The notes under the pieces: model-generated | Told to the model about the DNA's origin: nothing | Seen by the model: the letters and a program-made list of their open reading frames with translations, nothing else | Database searches by the model: none | Program-made: the position numbers and the translations under genes | Assembly (NCBI RefSeq): GCF_963921235.1 | Contig: NC_086108.1 | Location: forward strand, 30,010,001 to 30,074,000 | Length of the DNA stretch: 64,000 bases | Reading direction: 5' to 3' | Source of the DNA: Mobula hypostoma | Lineage: Eukaryota | Shown here: positions 2,152 through 54,055 of the stretch, piece by piece | How positions within the stretch are numbered: the stretch's first letter is position 1 | Layout: each line of letters opens with the position of its first letter

Positions 2152-2447
2152 TCTCACAGTATGCTGGAGGAACTCAGCAGGTCGGGCAGCATCCGTGGAA
2201 ACGATGAGTCGACATTTCGGGCCGGAACACTTCGTCAGGACTGAAGAGGGAAGGGGCAGAGACCCTATAAAGAAGGTGGGGAAGGGTCGGAAGGAGAAGG
2301 CCTTTATAGGGTCTCTGCCCCTTTCTTCTTCAGTCCTGATGAAGGGTTCCGGCCCGAAACGTCGACTCATCGTTTCCACGGATGCTGCCCAACCTGCTGA
2401 GTTCCTCCAGCGTGTTGTGAGTGTTGCTTTGATCCCAGCATCTGCAG
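2152..2447. mobile_element. Inverted (tail-out) pair of Penelope-type 3' tails
   Basis: ~2152-2271 is the reverse complement of ~2303-2421; same family as the tail following the GIY-YIG ORF at 3962-4503. Confidence 0.85.
2332..2367 (+). ncRNA. Minimal type-I hammerhead ribozyme motif, intact core
   Basis: AGTC-CTGATGA-A-GGG(TTCCGG)CCC-GAAA-C-GTC-GACT: helix I AGTC/GACT, core CUGAUGA and GAAA, helix II GGG/CCC, palindromic helix III ACGU, GUC cleavage triplet. Confidence 0.75.
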
Positions 2448-2519
2448 GTTATTTTGTCATTATTTATTGTAAGCTGTTGTGCTGGCCACTACACTACCAT
2501 GCCATCTACATCCCTCTAA

Positions 2520-3500
2520 TCATGTGTGCATGTTCATTGATCTGTCTGGATGAATCTTATATATTGTTAACGTATCTGATTCTATTAGCTTCCCTAGCAG
2601 GACATTCCAAGCATCTATCATTCAGCTTTTCTTAAGAAAATTACTTGCCTTACAAAATTTTTAACTTCCCCCCTCATCTTGAAACTATGCCCTTCAGTAC
2701 TGGTCATTTCTACCCTGAGTTAAAGATCCATCTACCCTGTCTATTGCCTTTTGTATACTTCGGTCATGTAGCCCCTCAGTCACTAATGCACCACAGAAAG
2801 TTTTCTAACTTCTCCATATAGCTAATACACTGCAAATTAGGCAACAATCTAGTGAACGTCTTCTGCCCTCTCTCCAAAGTCTTCACATCCTTAGTGTGGT
2901 GACCAGGCTGCACGGTAGTGTAGTGGTTAGCACAACGCTTTACAGTATCAGTGACCCGGGTTCAATTCCCTCCGCTGCCTGTAAGGAGTCTGTACGTTCT
3001 CCCTGTGACTGCGTGGGTTTCCTCCCACAGCTGAAAGACATACTGGTTGGCTAGTTAATTGGTCATCGTCAATTGTCCCATGATCAGATAAGATTAAATT
3101 GAGGATTGCAGGGTGGCATGATTCAAAGGGCTGGAAGGGCCTATTCCATGCTGTATCTCAACAACTAAATGAAGAACTGTACACAATACTCCAAATATGG
3201 CCTAACCAACTTTTTGTACAGCTACAACATCACTTGCCAACTTTTATATTCAGCACTCTGACTAAAGAATCCAAACATGCTGTACATAACTTTTTCCACC
3301 CTATCGATCTATTTTGCCACTTACAGGGAGCTCTGGACTTGCACCCCAATATCCCTTGACACATCAATTCTCTAAAGGATCAGGCCCTTAACAGTATACT
3401 CTTGAATTTAACCACCCAAGTGCCATTCCTCATACCTGTCCAACTTGGTCTTTATCTGCCATTTCTGCACTCAAATTTCCAATTGATCTATATTTTTTCA
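2520..3500 (-). mobile_element. Old CR1 LINE 3' fragment, interrupted by a SINE
   Basis: Reverse complement contains 'LVRPYLEYCVQF' and 'LKGIVSR'-type CR1 ORF2 C-terminal remnants. Confidence 0.6.
2906..3168 (+). mobile_element. tRNA-derived SINE (HE1-like), well preserved
   Basis: A box 'tagtgtagtgg', B box 'ggttcaattcc', CR1-like tail 'ggaagggcctattccatgctgtatctc'. Confidence 0.8.
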
Positions 3501-3681
3501 TGTCTTTCATGTCAAAGTTACAAGTCATACCACTTACGTTCTCATTCATATCATTATGTACAATGGCTTCCGGTTAATTGGGCAAACAACAGGAATTCTG
3601 CAGAGGCTGGAAATTCAAGCAACAAGCATCAAAGTTGCTGGTGAACGCAGCAGGCCAAGCAGCATCTGTAGGAAGAGGTGC

Positions 3682-3717
3682 AGTCGACGTTTCAGGCCGA
3701 GACCCTTCGTCAGGACT
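3682..3717 (-). ncRNA. Minimal type-I hammerhead ribozyme motif, intact core
   Basis: Reverse complement: AGTC-CTGACGA-A-GGG(TCTCGG)CCT-GAAA-C-GTC-GACT. Confidence 0.72.
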
Positions 3718-4403
3718 AACTGAAGGAAGAGTGAGTAAGGGATTTGAAAGTTGGAGGGGGAGGGGGAGATCCAAAATGATAGGAGAAGACAGGAGGGGGA
3801 GGGATGGAGCCAAGAGCTGGACAGGTGATTGGCAAAAGGGGATACGAGAGGATCATGGGACAGGAGGCCCAGGGAGAAAGAAAAGGTGGGGGGGACCCAG
3901 AGGATGGGCAAGAGGTATACTCAGAGGGACAGAGGGAGAAAAAGGAGAGCGAGAGAAAGAATGCCCATTCCCGTTCTGACGTGTCTATCCACAGCCTCCT
4001 CTACTGTAAAGATGAAGCCACACTCAGGTTGGAGGAACAACACCTTATATTCCGTCTGGGTAGCCTCCAACCTGATGGCATGAACATCGACTTCTCTAAC
4101 TTCCGCTAAGGCCCCACCTCCCCCTCGTACCCCATCTGTTACTCATTTTTGTGCACGCATTCTTTCTCTCACTCTCCTTTTTCTCCCTCTGTCTCTCTGA
4201 ATATACCTTTTGCCCATCCTCTGGGTCCCCCCCCACTTGTCTTTCTTCCCAGACCTCCTGTCCCATGATCCTCTCGTATCCCCTTTTGCCTATCACCTGT
4301 CCAGCTCTTGGCTCTATCCCTCCCCCTCCTGTCTTCTCCTATCATTTTGGATCTCCCCCTCCCCCTCCAACTTTCAAATCCCTTACTCACTCTTCCTTCA
4401 GTT

Positions 4404-4439
4404 AGTTCTGACGAAGGGTCTCGGCCTGAAACGTCGACT
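4404..4439 (+). ncRNA. Minimal type-I hammerhead ribozyme motif, intact core
   Basis: AGTT-CTGACGA-A-GGG(TCTCGG)CCT-GAAA-C-GTC-GACT, with a G-U pair in helix I. Confidence 0.7.
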
Positions 4440-5941
4440 GCACCTCTTCCTACAGATGCTGCTTGGCCTGCTGCGTTCACCAGCAACTTTGATGTGTGTT
4501 GCAGTTAATTGGGCTATGGGTTGATCAGGGCAGCCACTTATTTGGGACAACTCTTAAAGAACAAATACTAAATGAAAAAATAGCCCAGATTCCCTTCTTT
4601 ATTTGGGACACCACGCCACTTAATTGGGGCAGAAGATTGTTGCTGAAGTTTTTGATTAGTGTCAATCATGTGCACTTGTGTGACTGCTAAACATTACAGT
4701 GCTTAGAGCAAACAGTTTTTAAATAGCATCAATTGCATGTATTTTGCGTTCAAAAAGCAGAGATTTTTGTCACTGATAGTTGGCAAGAAATAAGCAGTAA
4801 GACAATTCAGAACTGTTTCACTCATTGTGGTTTCCAGCATTTGGGCTTAGAGATGCCAAATATGACCAGGCATGAAAATAAAACCATTTCACTACTTCAA
4901 CAAGTTAGGAAATATGAAGAATTTGAAAGTATTAACAATCATCTTGAATATTACAATGAAACTGAAGATTTGGAGGATGCAATCATCGAAAGCATTGTAT
5001 GACGACAGTCCATTGTCTGCACTAGGTGTCTACACTGATTTTATTCATTTACAGTCAATCAAAAGAATGTGGCAGCATAAACTGAGGTTGAATTTCTCCA
5101 TCAATAACTACTGATAACTGCAGTTTTATAGTAATGTAGTAGTATTGTTAGTGTTCTAATTTGTTCTGTATTTCATTTTAATAGATAATTTGTTCCTCAG
5201 TTAAAAGGTAGTTTAACCATTTCCAAACTTTGGCTCATTGGGGCAGTCGCTTAATTGGATCAAAATGTACTGCTCCAGATATGTCTCAATTAACTGGAAG
5301 GCACTGTATTACAAAAAAAAAGAGGTCCCAACACTGATGGTAGCAGAACACCACTGATCATAGACCTCTGGTCAGAAAAATACCTCTGCTCTACTGCCTC
5401 TATTTTCATTGACCAAAATGATTTTTACCAACTCATCAAGACCCCCATGTACCTTAATCTTCTGGTCCACCTTACCATGAAGGATCTTTAGAAATTCTTT
5501 ACTAGAACCATAAATGTGGATGAAGTGGCATATTTGAAGTACTCTCCATGGGTTTCAGTAATACATTTGACATAGCACCATGTGACAGATTGGCAAGAGA
5601 AAATAAAGTTCATGGAGCTAAGGGGAGTAATTGGATTAAAATAGCCTCTGCAAATTTTTTGCAATTGGAGGGCTTTGTGCTGTAAAGTTGCACAGAATTC
5701 AGGTCTGCTTCATACATGATGTATATAAACAAATAAGCAGTTTGCAAGGGATGTCATCATTAAGATGCTTGTTAATTGATTCCAGAACTGGTAGTGTGGT
5801 GACTATGGGGAAACCCATTTCTCAGTTCATGCAGATCAATTAACTGGTTAGATGTCTTTAATATGGCAAATCTAATTCATTCCTTTTAGGAAAGTTAAGC
5901 AAGCTGAGGGAATACTTGACATGTAAGATATGGGGTAACTT

Positions 5942-6820: not shown

Positions 6821-8104
6821 TAAATCTCGAAAGGGAACAGGACTAGTGGATAAGGCAATAAGGCAAATGGGAAGTTTGCTTTTATTAGCCAAGGCATGGA
6901 AGGCATGAACAGGTACATCATACCAGAACCATGTAAAGTGCTCCTCAGATTACAGATGGATACATTTCCTGGCACCACACCAGGTTGGGGGATACTGTGA
7001 CACTAAAGAAGATGCAGTGATCGTATGAGGAGCTTGCTAGAACTGGGGTATTATTTTGAGAAGAGATCAGCTAGTCAGCACTAACATTATTTGTATTTCT
7101 ACAAATAATCAGAGGTTCACAATTCAACTGGGATATAAAGCAAATTCAACTTTTAGACTCTCTGAACAATTGTAATGTTAATGTTCTGTTTTACTGTAAG
7201 AATTTTTGATATAACCTTTCTCTGCTTTGGCATTAGTCTGAGTGCACTAAGATTGACTTTAATCTCCTTTCTCTTTCTATCAGATATTTAGCAGAAAAGA
7301 ATAACAAGAATAGCTCTTCATCCCCTCACTCTTCCTTGCTCTTTATCTGAAGATTAAGATCTGAGCTAATGTTGCCCAACAGCCAGTTAATGTTATCCAC
7401 TGTTCTCAGATGGGGTCTCAGTTTGCTGAGGATGGGAAAAATTGCAATGGAATAGCTTTTGGCTCATGGAGGAGCATTTTTCCCAAGTCAAGAGATTAGG
7501 AGTTCAAGCCCCACTCCAGAGGTCTGGACAGGAAATCTAGGCTGACAGTTGATTATCACACTGTAGGAGTGGTACAAGGCCAACGTTTCAATGAGGTGTT
7601 AAGTCTAGACTACTTCTACTTACTTGGCTTTAGAGATTCCATGTCAGTACAGCACAAGAGCACAAGAGTTCTCCTTAGTATTCCTTTCAATATTAACCCT
7701 TCAACAACCCTCCTGTTATTCTTATGTTGTTCCTGAGGACACTTGTTACATGAAAGTTACTGGATGTATTTCCTGCATTGCAACAGTAATTAAATTAAAA
7801 TAGGACTTTGTGATGGCCTGACATTGTGAAAAGCCCAATATCAATATTTCATTAAGATTATTCCCATCTGTCCAGATGAAAGGTCAATTTTCCACTTCCC
7901 TTCTCTGATGCTACCTGACCCATTAAGTTTCTTCAGCAGTTTTTTATATGTATATTTCTCCAGGTTCCAGCACTCATTTTTGTCCCTACTCTTATTGCCT
8001 ACAAAAGATTCAACCAGCTTTGCTCACCATTTTATAACATCCCATGCAGAGAAACACGCCCTTTGGCCCACTAAGTTCTCACCAGCCATGAACTACTCAT
8101 TTAC

Positions 8105-8790
8105 CTAAGACCATAAAACTTAGGAGCAGAATTAGGCCATTCAGTCCATCATGGCAGTTTATTTTCAACCCCAGAGAGCCTGCTTTCTCCCTGTAACCTT
8201 TGACACTGTTACTAGTCAAGAACTTATCAACCTCCACTTTAAATGCATCAAATGACTTGGCCTCCACAGCTGTCTGTGGCAATGAACTGCACACATTCAC
8301 CATCCTCTGGCTTAAGAAATTACTCTTTTCTGTAGGGGCATCTTTCTATTCTGAGGCAGTACCCTCTGGTCCTAGACTCTCCCACTATTGTAAACATCCT
8401 CTCCATGTCCACTCTATCTAGAACAAAAGAAAATTTGCAGATGCTAGAAATAGAAGCAACACGCACAAAATGCTGGAGGAACTCAGCAGGCCAGGCAGCA
8501 TCTATGGAAAAGAGTACAGTTGATGTTTCGGACCGAGACCCTTCAGCAGGACAAGCACGAAACGTCAACTGTACTCTTTTCCATAGATGTTTCCTGGCCT
8601 GCTGAGCTCCTCCACTCTATCGAGGCCTTTCAGTATTTGGTAGGCTTCAATGAGATTCCTCTTTATTCTTCTAAACTCCAGCAAGTACAGAACCAGAGCG
8701 AGCCAACACTTCTCATACATTAGCCTTTTCATTACTGGGATCAAAACCTCCTCAGAATCCTTTGCACATCCTTTCAGATATGGGGCCCAA
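8105..8790 (-). mobile_element. CR1 LINE 3' fragment carrying a Penelope-tail insertion
   Basis: 'LIEAYQILKGLDRV' (8565-8825) continues as 'DRVDMERMFTIVGESRTRG' (8320-8420) across the insert. Confidence 0.8.
8422..8610. mobile_element. Short inverted pair of Penelope-type tails with degenerate hammerhead motifs
   Basis: TSD TCCACTCTATC (8408-8418 and 8611-8621); left arm on minus strand, right arm on plus. Confidence 0.75.
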
Positions 8791-10112: not shown

Positions 10113-11555
10113 CAAAATTCAAAGTTCAAAGTAAATTTTGTTATCAAAGTACAAATATGTCACCATATACAACACTGAGATTCATTTTCCTGCGGACATA
10201 CACAGCAATTCTATAGCAGTATCTGTAACAGGATCAATGAAAGATCAACCAGAATGCAGTAGACAACTTATTGTGCAAATGCAGATATAAGCAAATAGCA
10301 ATAAATAACAAGAACATGGGATGATGAGATAAGAGTCCTTAAAGTGAGATCATTGGTTGTGGGAAACATCTCAATGATGGGACAAATGAGTGTAGTTATC
10401 CCTTTTCATTCAAGAGCCTGATGGTTGAGGGGTAACAACTGTTCTTGAACCTGGTGATGCAAGTGTTAAAGCTCTTGTACCTTCTACCTGATGGCAGCAG
10501 TGAAAATGGAGCATGGCCTGGGTGGTGGGGATCTCTGATGATGGATGGTGCTTTCCTATGACAGCATTTCATGCAGGTGTGCTCAATAGTTGGGCGGGAT
10601 TTACCTGTGATGTACTGGGCTGGGCCAAATCCATTCATTTTGTAGGATTTTCTGTTCAAAGGCATTGGCGCTTCCATACCAGGCTGTGATGCAACCAGTC
10701 AACACACTCTGCACTATACAGATATGGAGGTTTGTCAAAGTTTTTGATGTCATGCCGTCTCTTCACAGACTCCTAAGGAAGTAGAGTTGCTGCCGTGCTT
10801 TCTTCACAATTGCACTTATGTGCTAGGTTCAGGACAGATCCTTGGAAATCGTGAACTCAGGAATTTAAAGTTACTAACCCTCTCCACCTCTGATCGTCTG
10901 ATGAGGACTGGCTCATGGATCCCTGGTTTCCTTCTCCTGGTCTACAATCAGTTCCTTGGTCTTGCTGATATTGAATGAGATGTTGCTGTTATGACACCAC
11001 TCAGCCAAATTTTCAATCTCCCTCCTCTCTGCTGATTCATCACCACCTTTGATTCGGTCTACAACAGTGGCGTCATCAGCAATCTTGAATATGGCACTGG
11101 AGCTGTGCTTGGCCACACAGTTACAGGTGTAAAGCGAGTAGAGCAGAGGACTAAGCCCACAGTCCTGTGGTGTACCTGTGCTCATGGGGATCATGGATGA
11201 GAAGTTGTTGCCGATCTGAACTGACTGGGATCTGCAAGTGAGGAAAGCCATGATCTAATTACACAAGAGGGAATTGAGTGAGACCGAGGTCTTGGAGCTT
11301 ATTGATTAGTTTTGAAGGGATGGTGGTATTGAATGCTGAGCTGTAATCGATAAAAGGGTTGCTGATGTGTGCATCTTTGCTGCCCAGTTGTTCCAGGATT
11401 GAGTGAAGAGCCAATGAGATGGCATCAGCTGTGGACCTGTATCTATGGTAGGCAAATTGGAGTCGCCTCTCAAACAGAAGCTGATATGATTCATCACAGA
11501 CTCTCAAAACAGTTCTTCACTGTGGATGTAAGTGCAACTGGGCCACAGTCATGTT
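10113..11555 (-). mobile_element. Rex1/Babar-like LINE, RT and 3' end, decayed
   Basis: 'QFAY..RSTADAIS', 'FIDYSSAFNT', '[17 protein letters not shown]', 'KIADDATVV', 'LLPSGRRY'; (TTTGAAC)n tail. Confidence 0.82.
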
Positions 11556-12999
11556 GATGTGCATAAGATCAGAAAGACTGTGGCATGACTTGATAACCCA
11601 TTTGTTAGGATACTGCATATGGTTCTGTTCATCATGCTACAGAAAGGACATAATTTCTCTGGAAGGGATGCAGAAAAGATTCACCAGAAAATTGCCTGGC
11701 ATAGAGCATTTTCATTAAGGGAAGCCCGAGGGGGACCTGTTACAGGTATACAAAATTGAGGAGCTTGGATAGCAAGCAGCATTTTTCCTTACTAAAGATG
11801 TTTGCAACCAGAGAGCATTGGATTAGCATAAGTAATAAAAGGTTTAAAGGGGTTCTAAGGAAGAATGTTTTCACCAGAGGGTTGTTGGAACGTTGAACTC
11901 ACTGCCTGAGAGGGTGGTAGAGAAGGTACAGTATACACACAGAATTTTAGTACCTAGATGAGACTTTAACCAAGGCATTGAAGGCTCCAAACCAAGTGGT
12001 TTTACTAGGAACAGTATGGTGGGCTGGTGAGCTGGAGGTTCTATTTCTGTTCTGTATGCCTCTAGTACTAAATTTGTGATATCCTTGCAGATTGAAAAGT
12101 GAACTAAACAGGTTTTCATTTTTAATGTTTTACTGTTTAGAGATACAGCACAATAACATGCCCTTCTACCCCTCTGAATCCACACTGTCCAATGACGTAC
12201 CTGTGACCAATTAGCCTACTAACCCATACATCCTGTAGGCACTCTGGCTTCTTTCCTCTTCCTTTCCAGTCCTGATGAAGGGTCTCAGCTCAAAACATCG
12301 TCTGCTTATTCATTTGCATAGATTCTGCCTTACCTTCTCAGTTCCTCTAGCATTTTATATGTGTTACTCTGGATTTTGAGCATCTGAGGAATCTCTTGTG
12401 TTTTCAGTAAAGGAACTTGTTTTTTTTCTCACATTCTCATCAATTCCTCTTTGATTCTGTTTGACCCTTAGCCAATTAATAAGAGCCAATCAATCTCCCA
12501 GAACATCACAAGGATATGGAAAAAAACAACAACAACAGTGGAAACTTATTGAGTCACAGGGAGAATATGCAAACTCCTTGTAGCACAGGAGGTCAGGGTA
12601 GATTCTGTAGTACTGAAGCTATGAGGCAGCAACAATAACTGTTGACCTAACACGCAGACCAATGCTGATGAGTAGCAATTACTGGCAAACACTTTCTTGG
12701 GCCTCAAAGCTTAATTTTAAAATTCATCACTTTGGACGCTAATTGGTGTTTAACTATTTTTTATTTTGTTTTTATTCTTTTACCTTTCATATTTGATTAG
12801 ATCCTCTAAAATCTTTATTTTGCTTTCTCCAAGTGACATAAATTTAACTTAGCAACTTTTATGTGTGTTGCTTGAAATTCCAGCATCTGCAGATTTCCTC
12901 GTGTTTGCATTTTTAAATTTAACTTAGAATGGTTGGTTTTCACTCTGCATGTCTCAATGAGGATTGGCTGTTCATGCAAGTTGCTGGACCCATGCAAAT

Positions 13000-17989: not shown

Positions 17990-18900
17990 AAAAACCTCCA
18001 GATGTCAATGAAGACTGTGAGGAGAATGCAGAGAAGCCAAGTATGTTATGTAAGGAATGAGGCATCCTCTTTGCTGGGGAAAAAATAAAAAAGGTGGGGT
18101 ACATTTCAAACAAGGATAGCATAAAAGTTATGGGTCTTCAGAGTGACCTGGGTATCCTTGTATGTTCAGCTATATCATGCAGTTAGAATGGCTTTTCAAT
18201 GTCTTTGTCTTTATTGCACAAAAATCTATGTGCAGGAGCAGAGCTGGTCTTCTCCACTTATTGAGAGACCTGGTGAGACTGCAACAGGATTGTTGTGTAC
18301 AAGACTGTTCCACAAACAGAAAGGAAAATATAGTTGGCATGGGGAACAGCAAAATTGAACTGGATTTAATGGAAATTTGAAAATTTGGTGAAAGGCTATG
18401 ATTTTGTAAATGGCTTGGTTAGGCAGATGATTGCTTAACTGGATGGTAGGTTTTCTATCAGGAGATAGTTAGTAGACAAGGTCTTTGGTTTATTGGAAAG
18501 AACAGATCTTATTGAAAAGTACAAAATTATTACAGACCTTGACAGGTTAATGCAAAGTTGATGTTTCAACCCAGCTGTGTCTTCCAGAACCAAGGGATCA
18601 GAATCTCAGAATAATTGGTCTGCCACTCAGAATGGAAATGTGGAGAAATTTCTTCACTCAGAGGGCAACGAATCTCTGCTGTTCTCTTCCCAGCAGCCTC
18701 TAGAGCAAGGATTCCCAACCTTTTTATGCCACTAACTGAGGGGTCAATGGATCCTAAGTGGAGAAACACTGCTATAGAGGATCAGTTACTGAGTATACCG
18801 AAGATAAAATTTAGTAGATTTTTGAATGTTAAGGGACTCAAAGGACATGGGGTTAGTGCAGAAAAATGGTGTTGACATGCAGTAAGTTATGTTATTATTG
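17990..18900 (+). mobile_element. Very old CR1 3' fragment
   Basis: 'DLIEKYKIITDLDRLM', 'NFFTQR' remnants. Confidence 0.55.
18706..18771. mobile_element. 66-bp hAT/Charlie-type MITE remnant
   Basis: Ends 'caaggattcccaacc' and 'ggagaaacactg'; near-perfect 8-bp TSD CTCTAGAG / CTATAGAG. Confidence 0.6.
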
Positions 18901-21230: not shown

Positions 21231-21469
21231 TGATCACTGAGGACAGTTTCTTTGTCCTCAGTTTCAGCAATATCAGAACCAGGAAAGAATAAAATTTAAA
21301 ACTTGGGAACACATAAGCTTAGGAGGGATAATGGTTCCTAATGCAACTCCTTTGCTTGCTTCTTCAGAAACAGCTCAATTTCCACCTTTAATTGTACAGA
21401 AGGGATGGGTTGAACCTTAACAGACGGGGGACCAGCATTCTGCAGGCAGGTTTGCCACTGCAACATGGG

Positions 21470-24204
21470 TGTGTTTAAACTAAGTAGCAGGGGGGAGGGG
21501 ACGAACTGGAAATATAAGAATGGAGTTAAAGGGAAAGAGAGAATAAGAAAAGTTAAGAAAGACAACAGAATTAACGGGGCAGAAAGCTCAGGAAGGGATT
21601 GGAGAGTATGGCCAAGTGCAATAGGAATCGATGTGAAAGGTGAGGGGAGTAAAAGTATTACTTTAAAAGGATTAAAAGTATTATATATGAATGCACGGAG
21701 TGTAAGAAATAAAGTGGATGAGCTTGAGGCTCAGTTGGACATTGGCAAGTATGATGTTGTGGGAATAACAGAGACATGGCTGCAAGAGGACCAGGGCTGG
21801 GAAATGAATATTTAAGAATATACATCCTATCGAAAGGACAGACAGGTTGGCAGAGGGGGTGGGGTGGCTCTGTTGGTGAGGAATGAAATTCAGTCACTTG
21901 CGAGGGGGAACATAGAATCAGGAGATGTAGAGTCAGTATGGATAGAACTGAGAAACTGTAAGGGCAAAAAGACCCTGATGGCAGTTATCTACAGGCCCCC
22001 AAAGAGTAGCCTGGATATAGGGTGCAAGTTAAATCAAGAGTTAAAATTGGCATGTCACAAAGGTAATACTACGGTTGTTATGGGGGATTTCAACATGCAG
22101 GTAGACTGGGAAAATCAGGTTGGTACTGGACTCCAAGAAAGGGAATTTGTGGAATGCCTCAGAGATGGATTCTTAGAGCATCTTGTATTAGAGCCTACCA
22201 GGGAGAAGGCAATTCCGGATTTAGTGTTGTGTAATGAGCCAGATTTGATCAGGGAACTCGAGGTAAAGGAGCCATTAGAAGGTAGTGACCATAATATGAT
22301 AAGCTTTAATCTACAATTTGAGAGGGAGAAGGGAAGATCGGAAGTGTCAGTATTACAGTTGAATAAAGGGGACTACGGACCCATGAGGGAGGAGCTGGCC
22401 AAAGTTGACTGGAAGGATACCCTAGCAGGGATGACAGTGGAACAACAATGGCAGGTATTTCTGGGAATAATACAGAAGGTGCAGGATCAGTTCATTCCAA
22501 AGAGGAAGAAAGATTCTAAGGGGAGTAAGGGGCAACTGTGGATGACAAGGGAAGCCAAGGACAGTATAAAAATAAAAGAGAGGAAGTATAACATAGCAAG
22601 GATGAGTGGAAAGCCAGAGGATTGGGAGAATTTTAAGGAGCAACAGAAGATAACTAAAAAGGCAATACGGGGGGAAAAGATAAGGTACAAAGGTAAGCTA
22701 GCCAAGAATATGAAGGAGGATAGTAAAAGCTTCTTTAGGTTTGTGAAGAGGAAAAAAATTAGTTAAGACCAAAGTTGGGCCCTTGAAGACAGAAACGGGT
22801 GAAATTATTATGGGGAACAAGGAAATGGCAGACAAGCTGAACAGGTACTTCACTAGGGAAGACACAAACAATCTCCCAGATGTAATAGTGGCCAGAGGAC
22901 CTAGGGTAACAGAGGAACTGAAGGAAATTTGCATCAGGCAGAAAATGGTGTTGGGTAAACTGATGGGACTGGAGGCTGATAAATCCCCAGGGCCTGATGG
23001 TCTGCATCCCAGGGTACTTAAGAAGGTGGCTCTAGAAATCGTGAACACATTGGGAATCATTTTCCAATGTTCTATAGATTCAGGATCAGTTCCTGCGAAT
23101 TGGAGGGTAGCTAATGTTATCCCACTTTTTAAGAAAGGAGGGAGAGAGAAAACAGGCAATTATAGACCAGTTAGTCTGACATCAGTGGTGGGGAAGATGC
23201 TGGAATCAATTATAAAAGATGAAATAGCGGCATATTTGGATAGCAGTGGCAGGATAGATCCGAGTCAGCATGGATTTACGAAGGGGAAATCATGCTTGAC
23301 TAATCATCTGGAATTTTTTGAGAATGTAACTATAGAAATGGACATGGGAAAGCCAGTGGATGTAGTGTACCTGGACTTTCAGAAAGCTTTTGATAAGGTC
23401 CCACATAGGAGGTTAGTGTGCAAAATTAGAGCAAATGGTATTGGGGTAGGGTACTGACATGGATAGAAAATTGGTTGGCAGACAGGAAACAAAGAGTAGG
23501 GATTAATGGGTCCTTTTCAGAATGGCAGGCAGTGACTAGTGGGGTACCGCAAGGCTCGGTGCTGGGACCGCAGCTATTTACAATATACATTAATGATTTA
23601 AATGAAGGGATTAAAAGTAACATTAGCAAATTTGCAGATGACACAAAGCTGGGTGGCAGTGTGAAATGTGAGGAGGATGTTATGAGAATGCTGGGTGACT
23701 TGGACAGGTTGGGTGAGTGGGCAGATGCAGTTTAATGTGGATAAATGTGAGGTTATCCACTTTGGTGGCAAGAACAGGAAGGCAGATTACTATCTGAATG
23801 GTGTCAAGTTAGGAAAAGGGGAAGTACAATGAGATCTAGGTGTCCTTGTTCATCAGTCACTGAAAGTAAGCATGCGGGTACAGCAGGCAGTGAAGAAAGC
23901 TAATGGCATGTTGGCCTTCATAACAAGGGGAGTTGAATATAGGAGCAAAGAGGTCCTTCTGCGGTTGTACAGGGCCATGGTGAGACCACACCTGGAGTAT
24001 TGTGTACAGTTTCGTTCTCCAAATTTGAGGAAGGACATTCTAGCTATTGAGGGAGTGCAGCGTAGGTTCACGAAGTTAATTCCCAGGATGGCGGGACTGT
24101 CATATGTTGAAAGGTTGGAGCGGCTGGGTTTGTATACACTGGAATTTAGAAGGATGAGAGGGGATCTGCTTGAAACATATAAGATTATTAAGGGATTGGA
24201 CAGG
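21470..24204 (+). mobile_element. CR1 LINE ORF2, nearly complete (endonuclease + RT); 5' part, upstream of the LTR insertion
   Basis: 'YMNARS', 'GITETWL', 'GDFN', 'SDHN', 'KSPGPDG', 'YRPVSLTS', 'YLDFQKAFD', 'GVPQGSVLGP', 'FADDTK'; a few stops and frameshifts. Confidence 0.95.
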
Positions 24205-25063: not shown

Positions 25064-25067
25064 TAAG

Positions 25068-31225: not shown

Positions 31226-31436
31226 TCTCATTACAATCCATCCAGTTCATTGCTGCACAGACAGCTACCAGTTCCTCACATTTACCCCTGAAGGTATCGT
31301 GGTGCCAACAATAGAGTTGAAAGAAAGGCCTTGCCTTAAAACATCCTGAAGCATTTCACTGCCAATTAATTCTAATGAGCTGTGGCCACTGTTGCAGTGA
31401 AGAAATAGGCAACAGCCGTGTGCAAGGAAACCACCA

Positions 31437-31618
31437 GCACATACAAAATGCTGGAGGACCTCAGCAGGTCAGGCAGCGTCCATGGAAATGAACAACATTT
31501 GACGTTTCAGGCCGAGACCCTTCTTCAGACCTGAAACGGAAGTGGGGGAGAGGGAGGTGCTGGAATAAAAAGGGTGGGGAAGGGGAAGAAGGATAGCCAG
31601 AAGGTGATAGGTGAAGCA
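31437..31618 (-). mobile_element. Penelope-type tail with hammerhead core (CTGAAGA...GAAACGTC) and decayed helix I
   Basis: Reverse complement of 31500-31533: caggtctgaagaagggtctcggcctgaaacgtca. Confidence 0.7.
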
Positions 31619-33408: not shown

Positions 33409-34081
33409 TGTAGATTATTTAAAAGAGCAATTTAAAAAGCTGGGCAATTTGCTTTTTTTTAATGAATGCCTCCAGCTACTTTCAAATGAGTGGGGCCTGC
33501 ACTAGATGTACCAGTCAAAGCCAGTTTAAAGCTGAGGAGCAAGGTATAATGTGCGTTTGACCCCTGGTCTCGACAATCAGTATTTGGATAAAAATGCAAT
33601 AAACATTTTGTCTCAATTTTGAACTATCAACCCCATTTTAAGGAGAATAATAATCACTCTGAATTCGAAAACAATCAATAAATATATCCAACCACTGATT
33701 CTGCTGATCACCAAAGAAGTTCCGACCAGTTATTGGAATATGTAAACTCTCAGTTATAGAAGTTTTTCTGAGTATTTCCCATTTATGAATAAACCTGTAC
33801 AAATAAGCAACACACACAAAATGTTGGAGGCCAGGCAGCACCTAGGAAAAGAGTTGACATTTCAGGCTGAGATCCTTCATTGGGACTGGATAAATAAGCC
33901 AGCTGACAAATGAAATTGCCAATTTGGAAATACTTGTAGCGCAAATTTAAAGGACTTGTGTAAAATGCTGCTGAAAAAGTGGGACTTGGTGCTGCTGGTT
34001 TTCCTTTCTACTTGTCACTTTGCCCTCTGTTTTTCTTTAGTTTCTAACTCAGAAAAATGATCTTTTAGTAACATTTAGAAT

Positions 34082-39400: not shown

Positions 39401-40350
39401 TAGTTGAACAGTGATGTACTTAGACCAAAAAGTCGCAGTTTGTTCCCACAATCTATCTTCTCATTTTCACAGACTCTTCATCTCATGTTCTCAATATTTA
39501 TTTCTTCTTCTTATTATTATTATTCTCTTTTTGTATTTGTGCAATTTGTTGTCTTTTGCCATTGGTTGGTTGTCCGACCTGTTGGGTGTGGTCTTTCATT
39601 GATTCTACTGTGTTTTTTGGATTTAATGTGTATGTTTGCTAGAAAATGAATCTCAGGGTTGTTTTTGGTGACATATATAGTAAGTACTTCAATAATAAAT
39701 TTACTTTGAACTTTACGGGGGTTGACTGTGCAGTCTTTCTCACATCTGCTGCTGTTACAGACAGTGGCTGCTTACCTGGGTGGGGAATTGTTTTTGTGGC
39801 TCATGTTATGTTGTATACCTTGGAGTGCGCATAAAAGTTATTTTGAGCATCAGAGAGGGAGGTATCACTGGCACAGTTGATGCTGTTTCTCCTTGCGTAG
39901 TCAGTAATACTCCTGATGCTCAGCCACATAAGCTGGAGATCATTATCAGACAGGTGTGCCTGAACTTTTTGTATCTATGTAGTCCTTGCCCTCTTGAAGC
40001 CTTATACGAGATTTCTCCTGATTAGTTTGTGACTTTGACCCTAGAAGATAAATAGATTATTGGTTGCACAATTACCTTTTGAGTTCAGTTCGTCAGCATT
40101 CTCAGAACTAGTCCCATGTTTCACATTAAGCAATAGTATCATGGCAGGGCATCTTAGATTAATTCTTTATAAACTCGGTCCATTGCTTCTGTTTATAAGG
40201 AATCCTCTGTCTGAAGTCTTCTCACATGGTTTCTCTGAGAGTTGTTCTGTCACCAGACCTGAAAGCAATATCCTGGGCTTTTAGTAGGGAACACACCTCT
40301 GTATTCAGCCATGGCTTCTCGCTGGGCTGTGAGATGACTGTTCTTTAGGT

Positions 40351-41112
40351 CAGGGGTCCCCAACCTTTTCTGCACCACGGACCGGTTTAATATTGACAAT
40401 ATTCTTGCGGACCGGCTGACTGGGGGGTGGGGGGGGTGTTCAAGCAGGGTTAAACTCACCTCAACATGTCTTTTACAGTTAGAGTTGCCAACTTTCTCAC
40501 TCCCAAATAAGGGACAAAAGTAGCAGTCAAATCCCGGGACACTTTACCCCGGTTAAGACTACCATGACCATGAAGCCTTGCGTGGGCACCTGTGTGCACA
40601 TGCGTGACGTGCGCAAGTGATGCACACATGGGCGCACATCCCGATTTTTTTCCCCCACAAATCGGTTTTGACTTCATCTTCCCGACTATACTGTACATAC
40701 ATTATTTCTACTTTATATAGGCTTTGTATTTATCATATCATTCCTGCTTTTGCTATATGTTAGTGTTGTTTATTTTCAGCTTTATGTGCTATTTGGTATG
40801 ATTTGTTAGGTTATTTTTTGGGTTTGCGAATGCTCAAAAAATTTTCCCATATAAATTAATGGTAATTGTTTCTTCGCTTCACGCCATTTCGGCACGAAAG
40901 GTTTCATAGGACGCTCTACCTTGGTGGGGGAAATAAGGGACAAACCATTTAGCCCAATATACGGGATGTCCTGGCAAATACGGGACAGTTGGCAACCCTA
41001 TGTTCAAGTTCAACAGTGCGTGACAGGGAATTAGGAAAGGTGCAGCTGACTCATATTGTTTCCTCACAGCCTGGTAGCACATGCTTTGCGGCCCGGTGGT
41101 TGGGGACCACTG
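40351..41112. mobile_element. hAT/Charlie-type MITE containing a second hAT MITE, which contains a Tigger-derived fragment
   Basis: Outer TIRs caggggtccccaacc / ggttggggaccactg with 8-bp TSD CTTTAGGT (40343-40350 and 41113-41120); inner element 40445-41000 with 8-bp TSD TGTTCAAG; 40690-40925 matches the 3' part of the Tigger at 51159-54221. Confidence 0.85.
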
Positions 41113-41434
41113 CTTTAGGTATCAATGTTGTCTACACACTTACTGAGATAGCCAATGACAGATAAAGCATATTCCTCGAGATCTACATTTTCTCCATTTG
41201 TTGCAGCTTCCTTCCACATCTGCTAGATGGTCCATTCAGAACAGTCTTGTAGCATAGAGATGGCCTCATTAGTCCATACAGTGATGATCCTCTTGACTGG
41301 TTTCTCCATTTTCAGCCGCAGTCGATATGCTGGGATTAATATTATGGAGATGTGGTCAGACAGGCCAAGATGAGGGCATGGGATGGCTTTGTATGTACCA
41401 TGTCTGTTTGTATTAACATGGTCCAGAAATCGTT

Positions 41435-41648
41435 AACAAAGTTTTTTTACACAGAGCGGTGAGTACGTGGAATCTCCTGCTAGGGATGGTGGTAGAGACA
41501 GATGCATTAGGGCCATTTAAGAAACTCTTAGATAGGCACATGGATGATAGAAAGATGGAGAGTTAGATTGATTCTAGAGTGAGTTAAATGGTCAGCACAA
41601 CATCATGGAGTAAAGGGCCTGTACCATGCTACACTGTTCTATGTTTTA
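41435..41648 (+). mobile_element. CR1 extreme 3' fragment
   Basis: 'FFTQ...WNLL', 'FKKLLDRHMD', tail 'gggcctgtaccatgctacactgttctatg'. Confidence 0.65.
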
Positions 41649-41780
41649 AATAGTCTGGGACACATCTGAGTGACTGCTAGCTGGGAGCTGTAGGTCGAAA
41701 ACCGCTTTGCTTCTGCCAAATGTTAATGCCATTGCCAGCATCACCTCATCAACTACCATGTGAGAAGTCTTTAAACAGTG

Positions 41781-41824
41781 AATTCCTTATAAACTATAAC
41801 AATGGACCTAGTTTATAAGGAATT
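41781..41824. repeat. Perfect 16-bp inverted repeat with 12-nt spacer
   Basis: AATTCCTTATAAACTA-taacaatggacc-TAGTTTATAAGGAATT. Confidence 0.9.
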
Positions 41825-42557
41825 AATCTAAGATGGTCTGCCATAATGCTATTGCTTAATGTGAAACATGGGACTAGCTCTGAGAATGCTGATGGACTGA
41901 ACTTAAAAGGTAATTTTGCAAGTTATTTGTCTTCTTGGGTCAAAGTCACAAACTAATCAGTGTGAAGCCTGTTAAAGATAAAGAGAGCTTCAATTTACAT
42001 AGATCTTAGATGCCCAGAAGATTCCACAAAGAGCATAGAACTGCCCAGTCAGTTAATGCATGACCGGTGATTGTGTTTGAGTCAAGGTGGTGAGGTCGTC
42101 GTCATTGTAGTCATTGTGAAAGCAGCAAGTGGTGGTGCAATCACATTACCATCTCATCCTCTAACATTGCAGGGTCTCATACTGGGTTCTGGACTAAAAT
42201 GCTGAAATGAGACTTGAGGTTGTCAGCTCGTACTAAAAACAGAAGCTCTTTGACCAGTAACCCTTAGCTACTCAGCATATTTTTCTAAAGAAATTGCAGA
42301 GGAAAGGAGGATTGACAGTAAGAAGGAAGTAAAGGGAATTAAGTTCAGAGCATTCACAAGGAGATTCCAATCCACTCCTTCATGAGGATAGGCAGGCTGA
42401 TACTGAGAGATTCAGGAGGATTGATGAAGTGTATTCATAAGGATACCAAATTTCACAAAAACATTCCTAAATTGTTTTCCCATTAACTAAAGCCAAATAG
42501 GAACCTTTGGTCAGTGGTGTAAACCTCTTCCCCTGCCATCCAGTAAAATTGCTGAAA

Positions 42558-43635
42558 AAAGAGAAAATCTGCAGATGCTGGAAATCCAAGCAACACACAC
42601 AAGATGCTGGAGAAACTCAGCAGGCCAGGCAGCATCTATGGAAAAGAGTACTGTGGACATTTTGGGCTGAGACCCTTCAGCAGGATTAGAGAAGAAAAAA
42701 TGAGTCGATTTGAAACGTGGAGGGAGGGGAGTTAGAAACACAAGATGATAGGTGAAAGCGGGAAGTGGAGGGTGAAGTAAAGAGCTGGGAAGTTGATTGG
42801 TGAAAGAGATACAGGGCAGGAGAAGGGGGAGTCTCATAGGAGAGAACAGAAGGCCATGGAAGAAAGAAGAGGGGATGGAGTACCAGAGGGGGGCAACGGC
42901 TAGGCAGGAAGATGAGGTGGGAGAAGGAAAAGGGGATGGGGAATGGTGAGGGGAGGGGGTGGAGAGGCCATTACCGGAAGTTCAAGAAATTGATGTTCAT
43001 GCTATCAGGTTGGAGGCTATCCAAGCGGAATATAAGGTTTCTCCAACCTGAGGGTGGCCTCGTCGCAATGGGAATGGAAAGTGGAATTAAAATGGGTGGC
43101 TGCTGGGAGATCCCACTTTTTCTGGCAGACAGAGTGTAGGTGCTCAGCGAAGCGGTCTCCCAATCTAAGTCGGGTCTCACCAATATACAGGAGGCCAAAT
43201 TGGGAGCACTGGGCACAGTATATGACCCCAATAGACTCACAGGTGAAGTGTCACCTCACATGGAAGGACTGTTTGGGGCCCTGAAATGTAGTGAGGGAGG
43301 AGGTGTAGGGGCAGGTGTAGCACTTGTTCTGCTTGCAAGGGAAGTGCCAGGAGGGAGATCAGTGGGGAGGGATGAACGGATAAGGGAGTCGCGTAGGGAG
43401 CGATCCCTGCAGAAAGGAGAAAATGTGGGGGGGGGTGGAGGGAAAGACTTTCTTGGTGGTGGGATCCTGATACAGATGGCGGATGTTACGGAGAATTATA
43501 TGCTGGACACGCAGGCTGGTGGGGTGGTGTGTGAGGACAAGAGGAACCCTATCCCTGGTAGGGTGGCGGAAGGATGGGGTGAGGGCAGACGTGTGTGAAA
43601 TAGAAGAGATGCGGTTGAGGGCAGCATTGATGGTG
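42558..43635 (-). mobile_element. Penelope-like element: RT-C-terminal linker, GIY-YIG and tail, decayed
   Basis: 'RDRVPLVLTHHPTSLRVQHIILRN', 'YIGETR', 'LIFRLDSLQPDSMNINFLNF'; degenerate hammerhead at ~42652-42687. Confidence 0.85.
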
Positions 43636-44249
43636 AAACAAAATTTCGGCTTCTGTTTGTAAGGAGGTTCTAGCAAGCCTGAAGGATTCAAAGTGCATTT
43701 ATTATCGCAGTATGCTGTATGTATAAGTATACAACCCTGAGATTCTTCTTCCCACAGGCAGCCACGAAACAAAGAAAACCATGCAACCTGCTCAAAGAAA
43801 AACTTCAAACCACACCCCACGTGCAAATTAAAGAAAACGAGCAAAAAAACACAGAATATAAAGCAGAAAATCGAAGGAGTCTAGGCATATTCAGTTCAGC
43901 TCAGTTCATTTCAATCTCGTGCCTTGTCATTCATTATTGGCAGGCTGCCCCGATCAAAACTGCTCAAAACAGCAACAAGAAAGGGAGTGACCATCAACCA
44001 GAAACACATCATAACGTTAACTACAGAATCCAATCCACAAACCACTTCGATTAAACCTTGCCCCAGATAATTCTGATGTGAAATGGCTAACTATGCAGGA
44101 TCCAACTATGTTCCTTTCATTGAGTTTTTAAAATATTTCCTTCTGATGGTCATCACATCCTAAAATACCGAAAAATAATCAAATTCTAGTTTTTGCTCAT
44201 GCTTTGTGTTCTAGGCCAACAGCTCCTGGAATAATGCATTAATGAGCAG

Positions 44250-47618: not shown

Positions 47619-47619
47619 C

Positions 47620-50050: not shown

Positions 50051-51404
50051 GGTGCAGTGCTGCCGGAGCTCAGCGGAGAACCACTCCAGCATCTCTGTAA
50101 AAAAAAGTCAAAATAAACAAGCGGGGAATTTAACAGCGGCCGCATATTAAATTGAGGGAGTTTTACGGAAGCGGGGGTTGGGGAGAGGGGGTGGTGGCTG
50201 GTGGGGAAAATACCACTAATAACATTAGGATATTTGATCGTTTTTGGTGAAATCCTGGAGCTGTGACTGTTTTTTATTTAGGTATTTGTGAAATTCATCC
50301 TCACTCGACCCATTGTTTTCCCAGCATACCCTGCTGTAGCCTCCTGCCATTTTACAGATCCTCAGTCTCTCTCCAGCCAAGGGATGACTGTACACGAGCG
50401 TGAGCATTCTTCCGCTCTTTCCAACGGGTACCATTGGATTCCAGGTTGGAGCTATATTAAGCAAGGAATAAATATCAAAACCTAAGGTTAAAAGTCAAAA
50501 ATAATGAATGCAAAATTCACTGCTCGCTTATCTTCGGCCTGATTTTGATGAAATATTCAAGGTAATCATCCAAAGTCCTCTTCTACACCTGGATAAAGTG
50601 AATTTAGTTTTTTTTTTCACAAGCCAAATGGGAAAAAAATATTTCTAGACTATAAGCTAGTTTTACATCATTTCAACTATCATTAGTAGCGGATCAACCC
50701 CTTGGCCGAGCTCCACCAACTATAGTTGATTGGACAGAGGTCCTTTTTCTCTTAGTGTTGATAGGAAAAAGAATAATTTAGTGAGGCAATGAACGAGACG
50801 AAACTCATTTTTCAATCTTCCAAATGGTTCCTCTCCTCCCATTAACATTTGTCACTTCCAAAATACGATATTTTTTATTCGTATAGATACGATAATAAAT
50901 TATGTAAAGATTCAAGCTTCTTTAGCTTTTTATATATTTAAAGACTAAACAGGGTCTGTATTGGTCTGACCACGTAATACCCGACGTGGGAGGATATTGT
51001 GAGTATCGACACTCACAGGTACACTTCCTGTCCAACCATTTCCGTGAGAGAAATGGTACGAGGCAGAGTTGCCAACCTACCGCTTTTGTTACTAATATTC
51101 AGCAATATTCGTGGCTTTAGCAATAGTTTATTAGACATTCTTTTTTCACACTTGATTACAGGTGTCTCCCGCTTTTCGAATGTCCGCTTTACGAAACCTC
51201 ACTGTTGCGAAAGACCTACATTAGTTACCTGTTTTCACTAACAGAAGGTGTTTTCACTGTTACGAAAAAAAGCAGCGCGTGATAAATAGGCAGCGCAGGA
51301 AGAAAAAAGCAGCGTGCGCCCTGAGCAGCCGCTCTCCCCCGGATTCGGAATGGCATTCTTCCCGGTATTGCTTAAACACGTGCTTGTGAGCAGCCGTTAG
51401 CAAG

Positions 51405-52034
51405 ATGAGCTCTAAGGTATTGGAAAAGCCTGAAAGAGTTTGTAAGGGTGTTATACTTAGCATAAAACTAGACATAATTAAGCATTTCGATTGTGGTGAA
51501 CCAAGTAAGGAGAACGTGAGTTTGCTTGTGGAAGTTGACGAAGATGATATTGAAGAGGTTTTGGCATCTCATGACCAAGAACTGATAGATGAAGGGCTGA
51601 TGCAATTGGAAGAAGAAAGGATAACAATCAAAACCGAATGCAGTAGCAAACGGACCGAAAGTGAAGTCGTCCAGGAACTGAACGTGAAGCAGCTGCGTAA
51701 GATTTTCTCTGCAATGATAAAGTACGGCTTTAATTTTGAAAGGGTATGTCGGTTTAGGGTATATTTGCAGGATGGTTTGAGTGCTTACAAAGAACTGTAT
51801 GATCTAAAAATGTGCGAGGCTAAGCAGTCAAGCAAGCCTTCCACATCAGCCACAGCAGACGACGAACCTCGACCTTCGACATCGGGGCAGGCAGACATAG
51901 AAGAAGATGACCTGCCTGCCCTGATGGAAACAGATGACACCCCAATGTCCCGCCACCCCCACCCCCGGGCCACGGACAGATACCGATTCACGGAGAATGA
52001 AGCGGTAGCCGGGACGCACCCAGCACATCGTTAA
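51405..52034 (+). pseudogene. 209-aa in-frame fusion of Tigger transposase N- and C-termini, no DDE domain
   Basis: 'KGVILSIKLDIIKHF' (start of psq-type HTH) joined to 'EVDEDDIEEVLASHDQELIDEGLMQLEEE' (acidic C-terminal region). Confidence 0.7.
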
Positions 52035-53526
52035 GAAAAAAGCTGAAACAAACAAGCTAATTAATTAGGTGCTGCCTGGCACGTAAATGTCGGCCCAGAT
52101 CAGAGGCGGTTGCCGATTGCGTTGCCTCAGATTTGGGCCGACATTTACGTGCTGGGCGGCACCTAATTAATTAGCTTGTTTATTTCGGCTTTTTTTCTTA
52201 AAGATGTGCTGAGCGCATTCCAGCCACTGCTGTACCCCTGAATTCTTCGTGGATCAGTATCGGTCAGCGGCCTGGAGAGTGGGGGCCACTGCACCACCCC
52301 AACCTCCAACGACTCAGCCTAACACACCATCATCATGTGCTCGATGTCTTCCCAATTCCCGTAAGTGATACTACACTGTACATACATTATTTCTACTTTA
52401 TATCAGCTGTGTATTTTTAGGTGTTATTTGGTATGATTTGGCAGCTTCATAGCTTACAGGTTACTGGAGAGCACTTGCGCCGTGTTTTTGCCGTTGGCGC
52501 TTGCACCGTGTTTCTGCCGAGAGCGCTTGCGTGACATTTTCGCTACGGAGAACAGTGCAGCAATGATTGTGGAGAAGTATTTCTACTTTATATAGGCTGT
52601 GTATTTATCATATCATTCCTGCTTTTACTATATGTTAGTGTTATTTTAGGTTTTACGTGTTATTTGGCTTGATTTGGTAGGTTATTTTTGGGTCTGCGAA
52701 CGCTCACAAACTTTTCGCATATAAATTAATGGTAATTGCTTCTTCGCTTTAGAAACATAGAAACATAGAAAATAGGGGCAGGAGTAGGACATTCAGCCCT
52801 TGAGCCTGCACCGCCATTCAGTATGATCATGGCTGATCATCCAACTCAGAACCCTGTACCACCCTTCCCTCCATACCCCCTGATCCCTTTAGCCACAAGG
52901 GCCATATCTAACTCCCTCTTAAATATAGCCAATGAACTGGCCTCAACTGTTTCCTGTGGCAGAGAATTCCACAGATTCACCACTCTCTGTGTGAAGAAGT
53001 TTTTCCTAATCTTGGTCCTAAAAGGCTTCCTCTTTATCCTCAAACTGTGACCCCTCGTTCTGGACTTCCCCAACATCGGGAACAATCTTTCTGCATCTAG
53101 CCTGTCCAATCCCTTTAGGATTTTATACGTTTCAATCAGATCCTCCCTCAATCTTCTAAATTCCAACGAGTATAAGCCTAGTTCATCCAGTCTTTCATCA
53201 TATGAAAGTCCTGCCATCCCAGGAATCAATCTGGTGAACCTTCTTCGTACTCCTTCCATGGAAAGGATGTCTTTCCTCAGATTAGGAGACCAAAACTGCA
53301 CACAATACTCCAGGTGTGGTCTCACCAAGGCCTTGTACAACTGCAGTAGTACCTCCCTGCTCCTGTACTTGAATCCTCTTACTATAAATGCCAGCATACC
53401 ATTCGCCTTTTTCACCGCCTGCTGTACCTGCATGCCCACTTTCAATGACTGGTGTATAATGACACCCAGGTCTCGTTGCACCTCCCCTTTTCCTAATCGG
53501 CCAGCATTCAGATAATAATCTGTTTT

Positions 53527-54055
53527 AGCAACACACATCAAAGTTGCCGGTGAATGCAGCAGGCCAGGCAGCATCTCTAGGAAGAGGTACAGTCGACGTT
53601 TCAGGCCGAGACCCTTCGTCAGGACTAACTGAAGGAAGAGTGAGCAAGAGATTTGAAAGTTGGAGGGGGAGGGGGAGATCCAACATGATAGGAGAAGACA
53701 GGAGGGGGAGGGATGGAGCCAAGAGCTGGACAGGTGATTGGCAAAAGGGATACGAGAGGATCATGGGACAGGAGGTCCTGGAAGAAAGACAAGGGGTGGG
53801 GGGAACCCAGAGGATGGGCAAGGGGTATATTCAGAGGGACAGAGGGAGAAAAAGGAGAGTGAGAGAAAGAATGTGTGTATAAAAATAAATAACAGATGGG
53901 GTACGAGGGGGAGGTGGGGCATTAGTAGAAGTTAGAGAAGTCGACGTTCATGTTATCAGGTTGGAGGCTACCCAGACGGAATATAAGGTGTTGTTCCTCT
54001 AACCTGAGTGTGGCTTCATCTTTACAGTAGGGGAGGCCGTGGATAGTCATGTCAG
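53527..54055 (-). mobile_element. Penelope-like 3' fragment (GIY-YIG C-terminus + tail) inside the CR1
   Basis: Closely similar to 3976-4502. Confidence 0.88.
53591..53626 (-). ncRNA. Minimal type-I hammerhead ribozyme motif, intact core
   Basis: Reverse complement: AGTC-CTGACGA-A-GGG(TCTCGG)CCT-GAAA-C-GTC-GACT. Confidence 0.72.

Follow-up and report, generated by a model that had tools for sequence, protein, structure and literature searches.

We analysed a 64,000-nucleotide stretch of the ray Mobula hypostoma (NC_086108.1, positions 30,010,001 to 30,074,000; hereafter the window), in which twelve copies of a short motif had been listed by an earlier inspection of the letters alone (the original prediction). 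We consider it very likely that an endonuclease-bearing Penelope-like retrotransposon (Penelope-like element, PLE) carries this motif as a minimal type-I hammerhead in its 3′ terminal repeat (pseudo-long terminal repeat, pLTR), and that the copies in the window are passive 5′-truncated insertion products of it, most of which would by prediction fail to cut RNA where they now lie. The motif is of the minimal PLE hammerhead kind already described by Cervera and De la Pena (2014); only its density, four intact motifs in 64 kb, stands out. No description of it in sharks or rays was found in the literature searched, which covered few subscription journals. The supplements of bioRxiv 2026.07.22.740005 list the retrozymes and PLEs of one chondrichthyan genome and may already include the motif, and PMC6155905 adds nothing further on sharks.

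Intact and eroded copies of the motif

The CUGANGA and GAAA core boxes with a UH cleavage site are present at four loci, namely 2332-2367 (plus strand), 3682-3717 (minus), 4404-4439 (plus) and 53591-53626 (minus), with cuts predicted after 2363, between 3686 and 3685, after 4435, and between 53595 and 53594, respectively. The original prediction had given all four with exact coordinates and had placed the cut after GUC at 2363 correctly. Their consensus, AGT(C/T)-CTGA(T/C)GA-A-GGG(6 nt)CC(C/T)-GAAA-C-G-T-C-GACT, matches the published form CUGANGAH-G..C-GAAAN-palindrome-NUH as given in the consulted part of PMC4209133 (supplement 2). In all four, the additional base that separates positions 9 and 10.1 is A, as in related loci, and positions 15.2-16.2 form the palindrome A-C-G-U with loop III absent. 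The 10.1-11.1 pair is G-C at 2332 and G-U at the three other intact motifs (U11.1 also occurs in several of the published rows seen in PMC4209133), and the 4404 motif additionally has U-G at 2.1-1.1. Core boxes, palindrome and an endonuclease upstream bear out the proposal that this is a minimal type-I hammerhead of Penelope type, whose helix III is palindromic and has no loop.

When both core boxes, the 15.2-16.2 pair, UH, a 4-bp helix I and three or more base pairs in helix II were demanded of a match, a descriptor search recovered these four loci in the window and no others, compared with a mean of 0.005 loci (maximum 1) in 200 dinucleotide shuffles. An Rfam search returned no hammerhead family among its nine window matches at E ≤ 1; the Hammerhead_1 model expects helix III. 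Rfam microRNA matches at 2222-2352 reflect inverted arms only.

All twelve listed copies are present and belong to one repeat: a single intact copy used as query gave 13 window matches at E ≤ 0.007, and a profile of the twelve gave 13 at E ≤ 3e-13 (partly by construction), while the best match in the reversed window had E 0.57. Eight of the twelve are damaged or truncated. The copy at 2207-2242 (minus) has a helix II mismatch and C>T at 15.2, that at 12268-12303 (plus) has G12>A and G>A at 16.2, and that at 31497-31532 (minus) keeps both core boxes with helix I broken; a U-A pair at 2.1-1.1 in the last was excluded from the covariation count, since CpG decay plus chance could give it. Further eroded motifs lie at 8518-8553, 33852-33887 and, with a broken core, 42652-42687 (all minus), a heavily eroded one lies at ~32228-32261 (minus), and at 59736-59860 (plus) a PLE end with its tail is truncated within the motif, so that CUGANGA is absent. 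The eight eroded copies of the original prediction are thus all genuine repeat members, with borders shifted from 8517-8552 to 8518-8553 and from 31500-31533 to 31497-31532, and with the CUGANGA box missing from that listed at 59736-59760. Absent from its list were a partial motif at 8558-8614 (plus), a tail-only scrap with no hammerhead at 12859-12915 (plus) and a weaker tail-only scrap at 7866-7942. A second short motif start, made up of a helix I strand, a piece of the core and then an A run, was seen at ~31632-31650 (minus), just upstream of the copy at 31398-31620. A covariance model failed to recover the copies at 32230 and 59736. Its match at 18554-18593 (minus, E 0.009) was dropped on inspection for want of CUGANGA and of a tail, and those at 2290-2339 (minus, E 0.12) and 11493-11526 (minus, E 0.62) were dropped as weak.

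The carrier element and conservation of the fold

The longest PLE remnant, at 42556-43640 (minus), contains the linker between reverse transcriptase and endonuclease, a CX4CXXC zinc linker, a GIY-YIG domain with stops and frameshifts, the 3′ untranslated region, the eroded motif and the tail. Its translation (P0001) shows the C-X4-C-X2-C linker, whose three cysteines are invariant in 18 aligned proteins, and a GIY-YIG core that holds two cysteines between its GIY and YIG parts. The Pfam GIY-YIG match on the remnant remained under the cut-off (E 0.011); the remnant aligns to relatives that carry both reverse transcriptase and endonuclease. Its best named relatives are predicted proteins from Mobula hypostoma (83% identity), Hypanus sabinus (75-77%) and then whale shark (57%). 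Longer relatives (63 proteins, with up to 52% identity to the ray protein P0002, and 45-52% for those carrying reverse transcriptase) combine a DKG motif, reverse transcriptase and a C-terminal endonuclease, and no reverse transcriptase is present in the window copies. Endonuclease sequence is retained at two further places: at 3969-4109 (plus) the C-terminal 46 codons and the stop (78% identity to P0003, E 6e-25), and at ~53918-54055 (minus) a C-terminus within the insertion at 53528-54055. In all three endonuclease-bearing insertions the motif lies on the sense strand about 290-300 nt 3′ of the endonuclease stop, that at 4404 being ~300 nt past it; in related loci the distance is 87-166 nt. 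According to the consulted part of PMC8557442, PLEs of the Neptune and Nematis clades are recognised by a CX2-5CXXC linker that precedes the endonuclease. The zinc linker, which both clades share, suggests a PLE of Neptune/Nematis type. A scan of viral contigs gave one weak GIY-YIG locus (L001), which was not used. The Hypanus gene model P0004, named "mucin-2 isoform X2", includes the endonuclease of this PLE and is probably an annotation artefact or an exonised insertion.

The same arrangement recurs in distant relatives. Among the best 80 of 281 related loci in metagenome contigs, the descriptor found 23 motifs, compared with 0.05 in shuffles, and placed a motif downstream of the endonuclease in 11 of the 39 loci with enough downstream DNA. 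A search free of any pairing requirement found exact core boxes in 18 of these 39, near-exact ones in 14 (some by chance) and none in seven; all 18 exact cores lie 87-166 nt past the endonuclease, and their helices I and II pair in 91% and 96% of cells. PLEs with only ~40-55% protein identity thus share the core just past the endonuclease and differ by compensatory helix I changes. Across 14 aligned motifs the catalytic core letters are invariant in every row and helix I varies freely in pairs (AGUC/GACU, GCU/AGC, ACA/UGU, UUC/GAA, UCAA/UUGA); both sides change in six of eight pairs, and 93.8% of cells pair as against 21-42% in slid controls. On these alignments, in which the rows are related and partly selected for pairing, the fold is conserved and helices I and II are backed by covariation. 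Within the ray, the identity between subfamilies A and B is 0.87 over the 36-mer; it falls to 0.55 in the upstream flank and to 0.56 immediately downstream, and is 0.70 for the tail block. The motif is thus more conserved than its flanks, as the original prediction had expected, with the tail block close behind. In sequencing run X1, loose contig ends pile up at both motif borders (540 contigs at 3681 and 591 at 3717). A degenerate motif scan of the metagenome contigs gave no matches. Five distant PLE relatives (L006, L026, L030, L041 and L071) have the same inverted upstream hammerhead copy, and in L029 and L038 a sense motif lies upstream of the open reading frame (ORF), as expected for a 5′ pLTR.

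Insertion anatomy, predicted folding and rival explanations

The twelve motifs derive from about ten insertion events. The subfamily B insertion at 2151-2456 consists of inverted 5′-truncated arms (2150-2272 and 2302-2424; 123 nt, 92% complementary) with a tail on the plus arm only and no coding DNA; the 10-bp duplication with one mismatch at 2141 and 2457 is borderline against chance. Two tRNA-type short interspersed element copies lie in inverted orientation at 1920-2502 and 2910-3090, the first being interrupted by this insertion. The subfamily A insertion at 3584-4503 has arms of 346 nt (3619-3964 and 4157-4502, 95%), a tail on the minus arm only and an exact 11-bp target-site duplication (3573-3583 and 4504-4514). 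The third clear head-to-head pair (57 nt, 93%) belongs to the short insertion at 8422-8610, which holds the motifs at 8518-8553 (minus) and 8558 (plus) between 14-bp duplications with one mismatch (8408/8611). In these three pairs the tail of ~30 nt is found on one arm only. The remaining copies are truncated or short PLE ends at 12255-12410 (plus), 31398-31620 (minus), 32133-32273 (minus; with a tiny inverted tail scrap and a 14-bp duplication with one mismatch at 32119/32274) and 33805-33889 (minus; starting ~2 nt before helix I), and the solo subfamily A insertion at 53528-54055 (minus), which lies within a CR1-type long interspersed nuclear element (LINE) fragment.

Direct repeats bracket the whole inserted unit: besides those of 11 and 14 bp, repeats of 10 bp with one mismatch occur at two more insertions. 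None of 300 random boxes gave more than 10 matches, and seven gave at least 9 (borders hand-picked), so that the 11-14 bp duplications at three insertions lie above every random value; a comparison of flanks gave no convincing target-site duplication at five of the ten insertions. The 5′ starts range from within the motif to ~960 nt upstream, and none coincides with the predicted cut site. There are no head-to-tail tandem hammerhead units, none of the ten tandem-repeat rows in the window overlapping a motif, and no internal promoter or tRNA head was seen ahead of the copies in the sequence read. Truncation, an inverted 5′ copy, a one-sided tail and a target-site duplication form the signature published for truncated copies of autonomous PLEs in the parts of PMC8557442 and PMC3846280 consulted. 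Since scattered 5′ starts, duplications, inverted arms and one-sided tails reproduce this anatomy, a separate non-autonomous family is not required.

In the folding model the double-hammerhead conformer lies at -7 to -16 kcal/mol, compared with -26 to -32 for misfolded dimers, that is, 11-22 kcal/mol above its competitors. Region 2140-2450 is predicted to form a single hairpin of -247 kcal/mol (z -27.7), and the probabilities of helix I and helix II in context are 0.00 for the motifs at 2207, 2332, 3682 and 4404; removal of the inverted arm is predicted to restore helix II of the 2332 motif at ~0.6. Three of the four intact motifs (2332, 3682 and 4404) are thus predicted to be buried in RNA duplexes of 123-346 bp formed by their own inverted arms; whichever strand of a head-to-head pair is transcribed, the RNA reaches the antisense arm first and the sense motif afterwards. 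The sole intact motif outside the inverted pairs, that at 53591, is predicted to fold back on sequence upstream of it, and no intact partner on its strand occurs within 49 kb. These energies fit the weak or protein-dependent activity in the literature: the consulted parts of PMC4209133 report no monomer and low dimer activity of PLE hammerheads, those of PMC11167929 protein-assisted cleavage, with insertion in vitro unaffected by hammerhead mutants and RNA-seq ends lacking at the site, and those of bioRxiv 2026.07.22.740005 cleavage of one of nine frog dimers.

We propose the following hypothetical scenario. Because helix III consists only of the palindrome ACGU, catalysis would need two strand-exchanging motifs, and in a full-length parent element two motifs in tandem pLTRs would pair through this palindrome and through exchanged helix I strands. 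Folding and the cut after GUC would probably need the element's protein and would trim the tandem precursor RNA; the motif would function, if at all, in the tandem-pLTR RNA of the parent bound to that protein. As reverse transcription would start just downstream, at the tail, even the shortest insertions would copy the hammerhead first, which would explain its density. Once inserted, the motif would decay, largely by CpG changes, and in inverted pairs the antisense arm would lock the sense motif in duplex.

Several observations weigh against the reading of the copies as passive PLE debris around a conserved hammerhead. The short copies at 8554, 33889 and ~32261 start within a few bases of the helix I 5′ edge and could mark a preferred short form. 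No full-length ray ORF was found among proteins of 740-2110 aa in a weak search, and the autonomous parent element is for this reason inferred. As the 14 aligned rows were picked by a pairing-based descriptor and many loci belong to one subfamily, the covariation is partly circular and non-independent, a problem which the pairing-free search lessens and does not remove. The tail block is fairly conserved too (0.70); the start of the ORF in other PLEs overlaps with this region, as far as the consulted parts of PMC11167929 and PMC3846280 go, and some of the conservation may serve protein binding or coding. The monomer folds no better than shuffles, and the folding energies leave out tertiary contacts, magnesium and proteins. 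Apart from these points, T>C places on 3560-4150 are more numerous, and C>T/G>A places fewer, in contigs of two runs guessed to be RNA than in those of DNA runs with the same species labels (T>C: 15/71 vs 4/76, Fisher p 0.006; 9/61 vs 2/66, p 0.026). On the inverted arm's sense strand this excess reads as A>G; it might reflect A-to-I editing and would then contradict the expectation that nothing happens to these copies. However, A>G on the opposite strand is not raised, individuals differ, the rows listed are a minority of the total and the subfamily mix could account for the excess.

The original prediction attributed the spread of the motif to short non-autonomous derivatives and described most copies as having no coding sequence. 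The second statement applies to copies, about seven of the ten or so insertions lacking coding DNA; yet three of the four intact motifs lie in insertions that retain endonuclease-coding DNA. An independently replicating family, SINE-like or retrozyme-like, in which the hammerhead makes its own RNA, would agree with the many non-coding insertions, with the several starts close to helix I, with the low consensus agreement (0.39) of the loose ends at 3717, which fits mixed flanks, and with the tandem retrozymes reported for one chondrichthyan genome in the consulted part of bioRxiv 2026.07.22.740005. However, the 5′ starts are spread over ~1 kb, no arm begins at the predicted cut site, neither tandem units nor a promoter or tRNA head was seen, as set out above, and at least four subfamilies contribute copies, which makes such a family improbable. 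More serious, but still unlikely, is the view that conservation of the motif reflects a structural role in protein binding or priming, with catalysis vestigial even in the parent. Within the consulted parts of the sources, insertion in vitro is not reduced in hammerhead mutants of the anole PLE (PMC11167929) and Naiad PLEs lack canonical hammerheads and thrive (PMC8557442); moreover, a weak G-U at 10.1-11.1 and a helix II of only 4 bp characterise the dominant ray form. Against this stand the invariant core letters in the 14 aligned motifs, in which helix I covaries, the U11.1 of the published rows in PMC4209133 and the cleavage of the anole motif in the presence of protein (PMC11167929).

It had also been suggested that these motifs cleave host intronic or read-through transcripts, either in trans or through cis dimers of same-strand neighbours. 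That such cutting reaches an extent of consequence for the host we regard as very improbable. What speaks for it is the high density (four intact motifs in 64 kb, 17-160 per Mb), the expansion of PLEs in whale shark introns (bioRxiv 443036, in part), the intact same-strand motifs 2332 and 4404 at a distance of 2 kb and the presence of the repeat in contigs of runs guessed to be RNA. Yet 2332 and 4404 each follow their own antisense arm, misfolding with upstream sequence is predicted for the solo motif 53591, the core of its nearest same-strand neighbour (42652) is broken, the folding model disfavours the dimer conformer, the decay of eight of the twelve copies is as expected without selection, and published activity is low or protein-dependent. 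Nor was a host exon found: 150 frames (149 of 228 unmasked frames of 50-99 aa and one longer) gave only a transposase helix-turn-helix match, and a host-gene search with eight longer frames gave only a gag-type match. The inverted arms are a large source of predicted double-stranded RNA. A bolder and improbable extension would be that rays bear the largest vertebrate hammerhead load (10^4-10^5 or more intact motifs), tolerated since the inverted arm locks the motif in long double-stranded RNA subject to A-to-I editing, as inverted Alus are, and that expression of the element's protein, in the germline for instance, turns unlocked solo motifs into sites where transcripts are cut.

Abundance, neighbouring elements and comparison with known systems

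Four intact motifs in 64 kb correspond to 62 per Mb, with a 95% interval of 17-160 for copies that are non-independent and of 10-137 if three events are counted. For a genome of 3-4 Gb, and if the window is typical, roughly 10^4.5 to 10^5.5 intact motifs would be expected genome-wide. In run X1, 193,687 of 29.8 million contigs fall on one 591-base stretch of the element, which indicates great abundance and is not a copy number; both figures agree with the very high copy number that had been proposed. The dominant ray subfamily has U at 11.1 (window position 3694), with ~80% U by summed depth in three of four runs and 71% in the fourth (C share 19-29%), giving a weaker closing pair than the usual G-C. 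Summed depth was not taken as a copy number, and depth differences around the cut site between guessed-RNA and DNA contigs were set aside, as the depth of contigs cannot put parts in rank order. Little is new here in kind, since the literature already covers PLE hammerheads, the logic of their dimers and the anatomy of the insertions; the gain is quantitative. With tens of thousands of copies or more, of mixed age, a vertebrate genome permits tests that low-copy systems cannot offer, such as the purging of intact same-strand intronic motifs, the record of cut sites in insertion starts and the core constraint between subfamilies, and these bear on the in vivo role of PLE hammerheads.

Other mobile elements also lie in the window. 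A long terminal repeat (LTR) retrotransposon at 24227-28600 has near-identical LTRs and an open 943-aa frame (25115-27946) with SCAN and zinc-knuckle domains, and looks young. A CR1-type LINE at 21400-24250 is nearly full-length with several frameshifts, a Tigger/pogo-like frame lies at 51390-52034, and long inverted repeats at 40018-41960, 52001-52231 and 58252-58554 are probably ends of DNA transposons or miniature inverted-repeat transposable elements.

Compared with the minimal PLE hammerheads as described in the consulted part of PMC4209133, the ray motif is likewise of type I, with CUGANGA and GAAA boxes, the extra base between 9 and 10.1 and a loop-less palindromic 15.2-16.2. It shares with them a short helix I, U-rich upstream sequence, mostly dispersed single motifs from truncated elements and opposite-strand pairs 100-700 bp apart. 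Unlike most of those families, in which helix II has 5-8 bp, the ray helix II has 4 bp, often with two G-U pairs. The extrapolated load is well above the counts given there for coelacanth (~4,000) and Xenopus (~9,000), and the supplement text searched, which leaves one file outside, names no cartilaginous fish. With the C-terminal-endonuclease PLEs of the Neptune/Nematis type (PMC8557442 and PMC3846280, in part) the ray element has in common the CX2-5CXXC linker before GIY-YIG, the two cysteines between GIY and YIG, 5′ truncation, an inverted 5′ copy, a one-sided tail of 30-40 bp and target-site duplications of ~10 bp; it differs in that the window holds neither a full-length ORF nor a direct pLTR tandem and in that the targets are not (TA)n microsatellites. 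As in the anole Poseidon element PAc (Frangieh et al. 2024, PMC11167929, in part), the hammerhead immediately precedes the tail at which reverse transcription begins, and targets are AT-rich. PAc, however, belongs to another PLE clade (Penelope/Poseidon, without the zinc linker), and its activity was shown with protein. Like the animal non-LTR retrozymes covered by the consulted part of bioRxiv 2026.07.22.740005, most of the ray copies are PLE-derived non-coding DNA with a type-I hammerhead; in contrast to the head-to-tail tandem units of retrozymes, they are dispersed or arranged as head-to-head inverted pairs.

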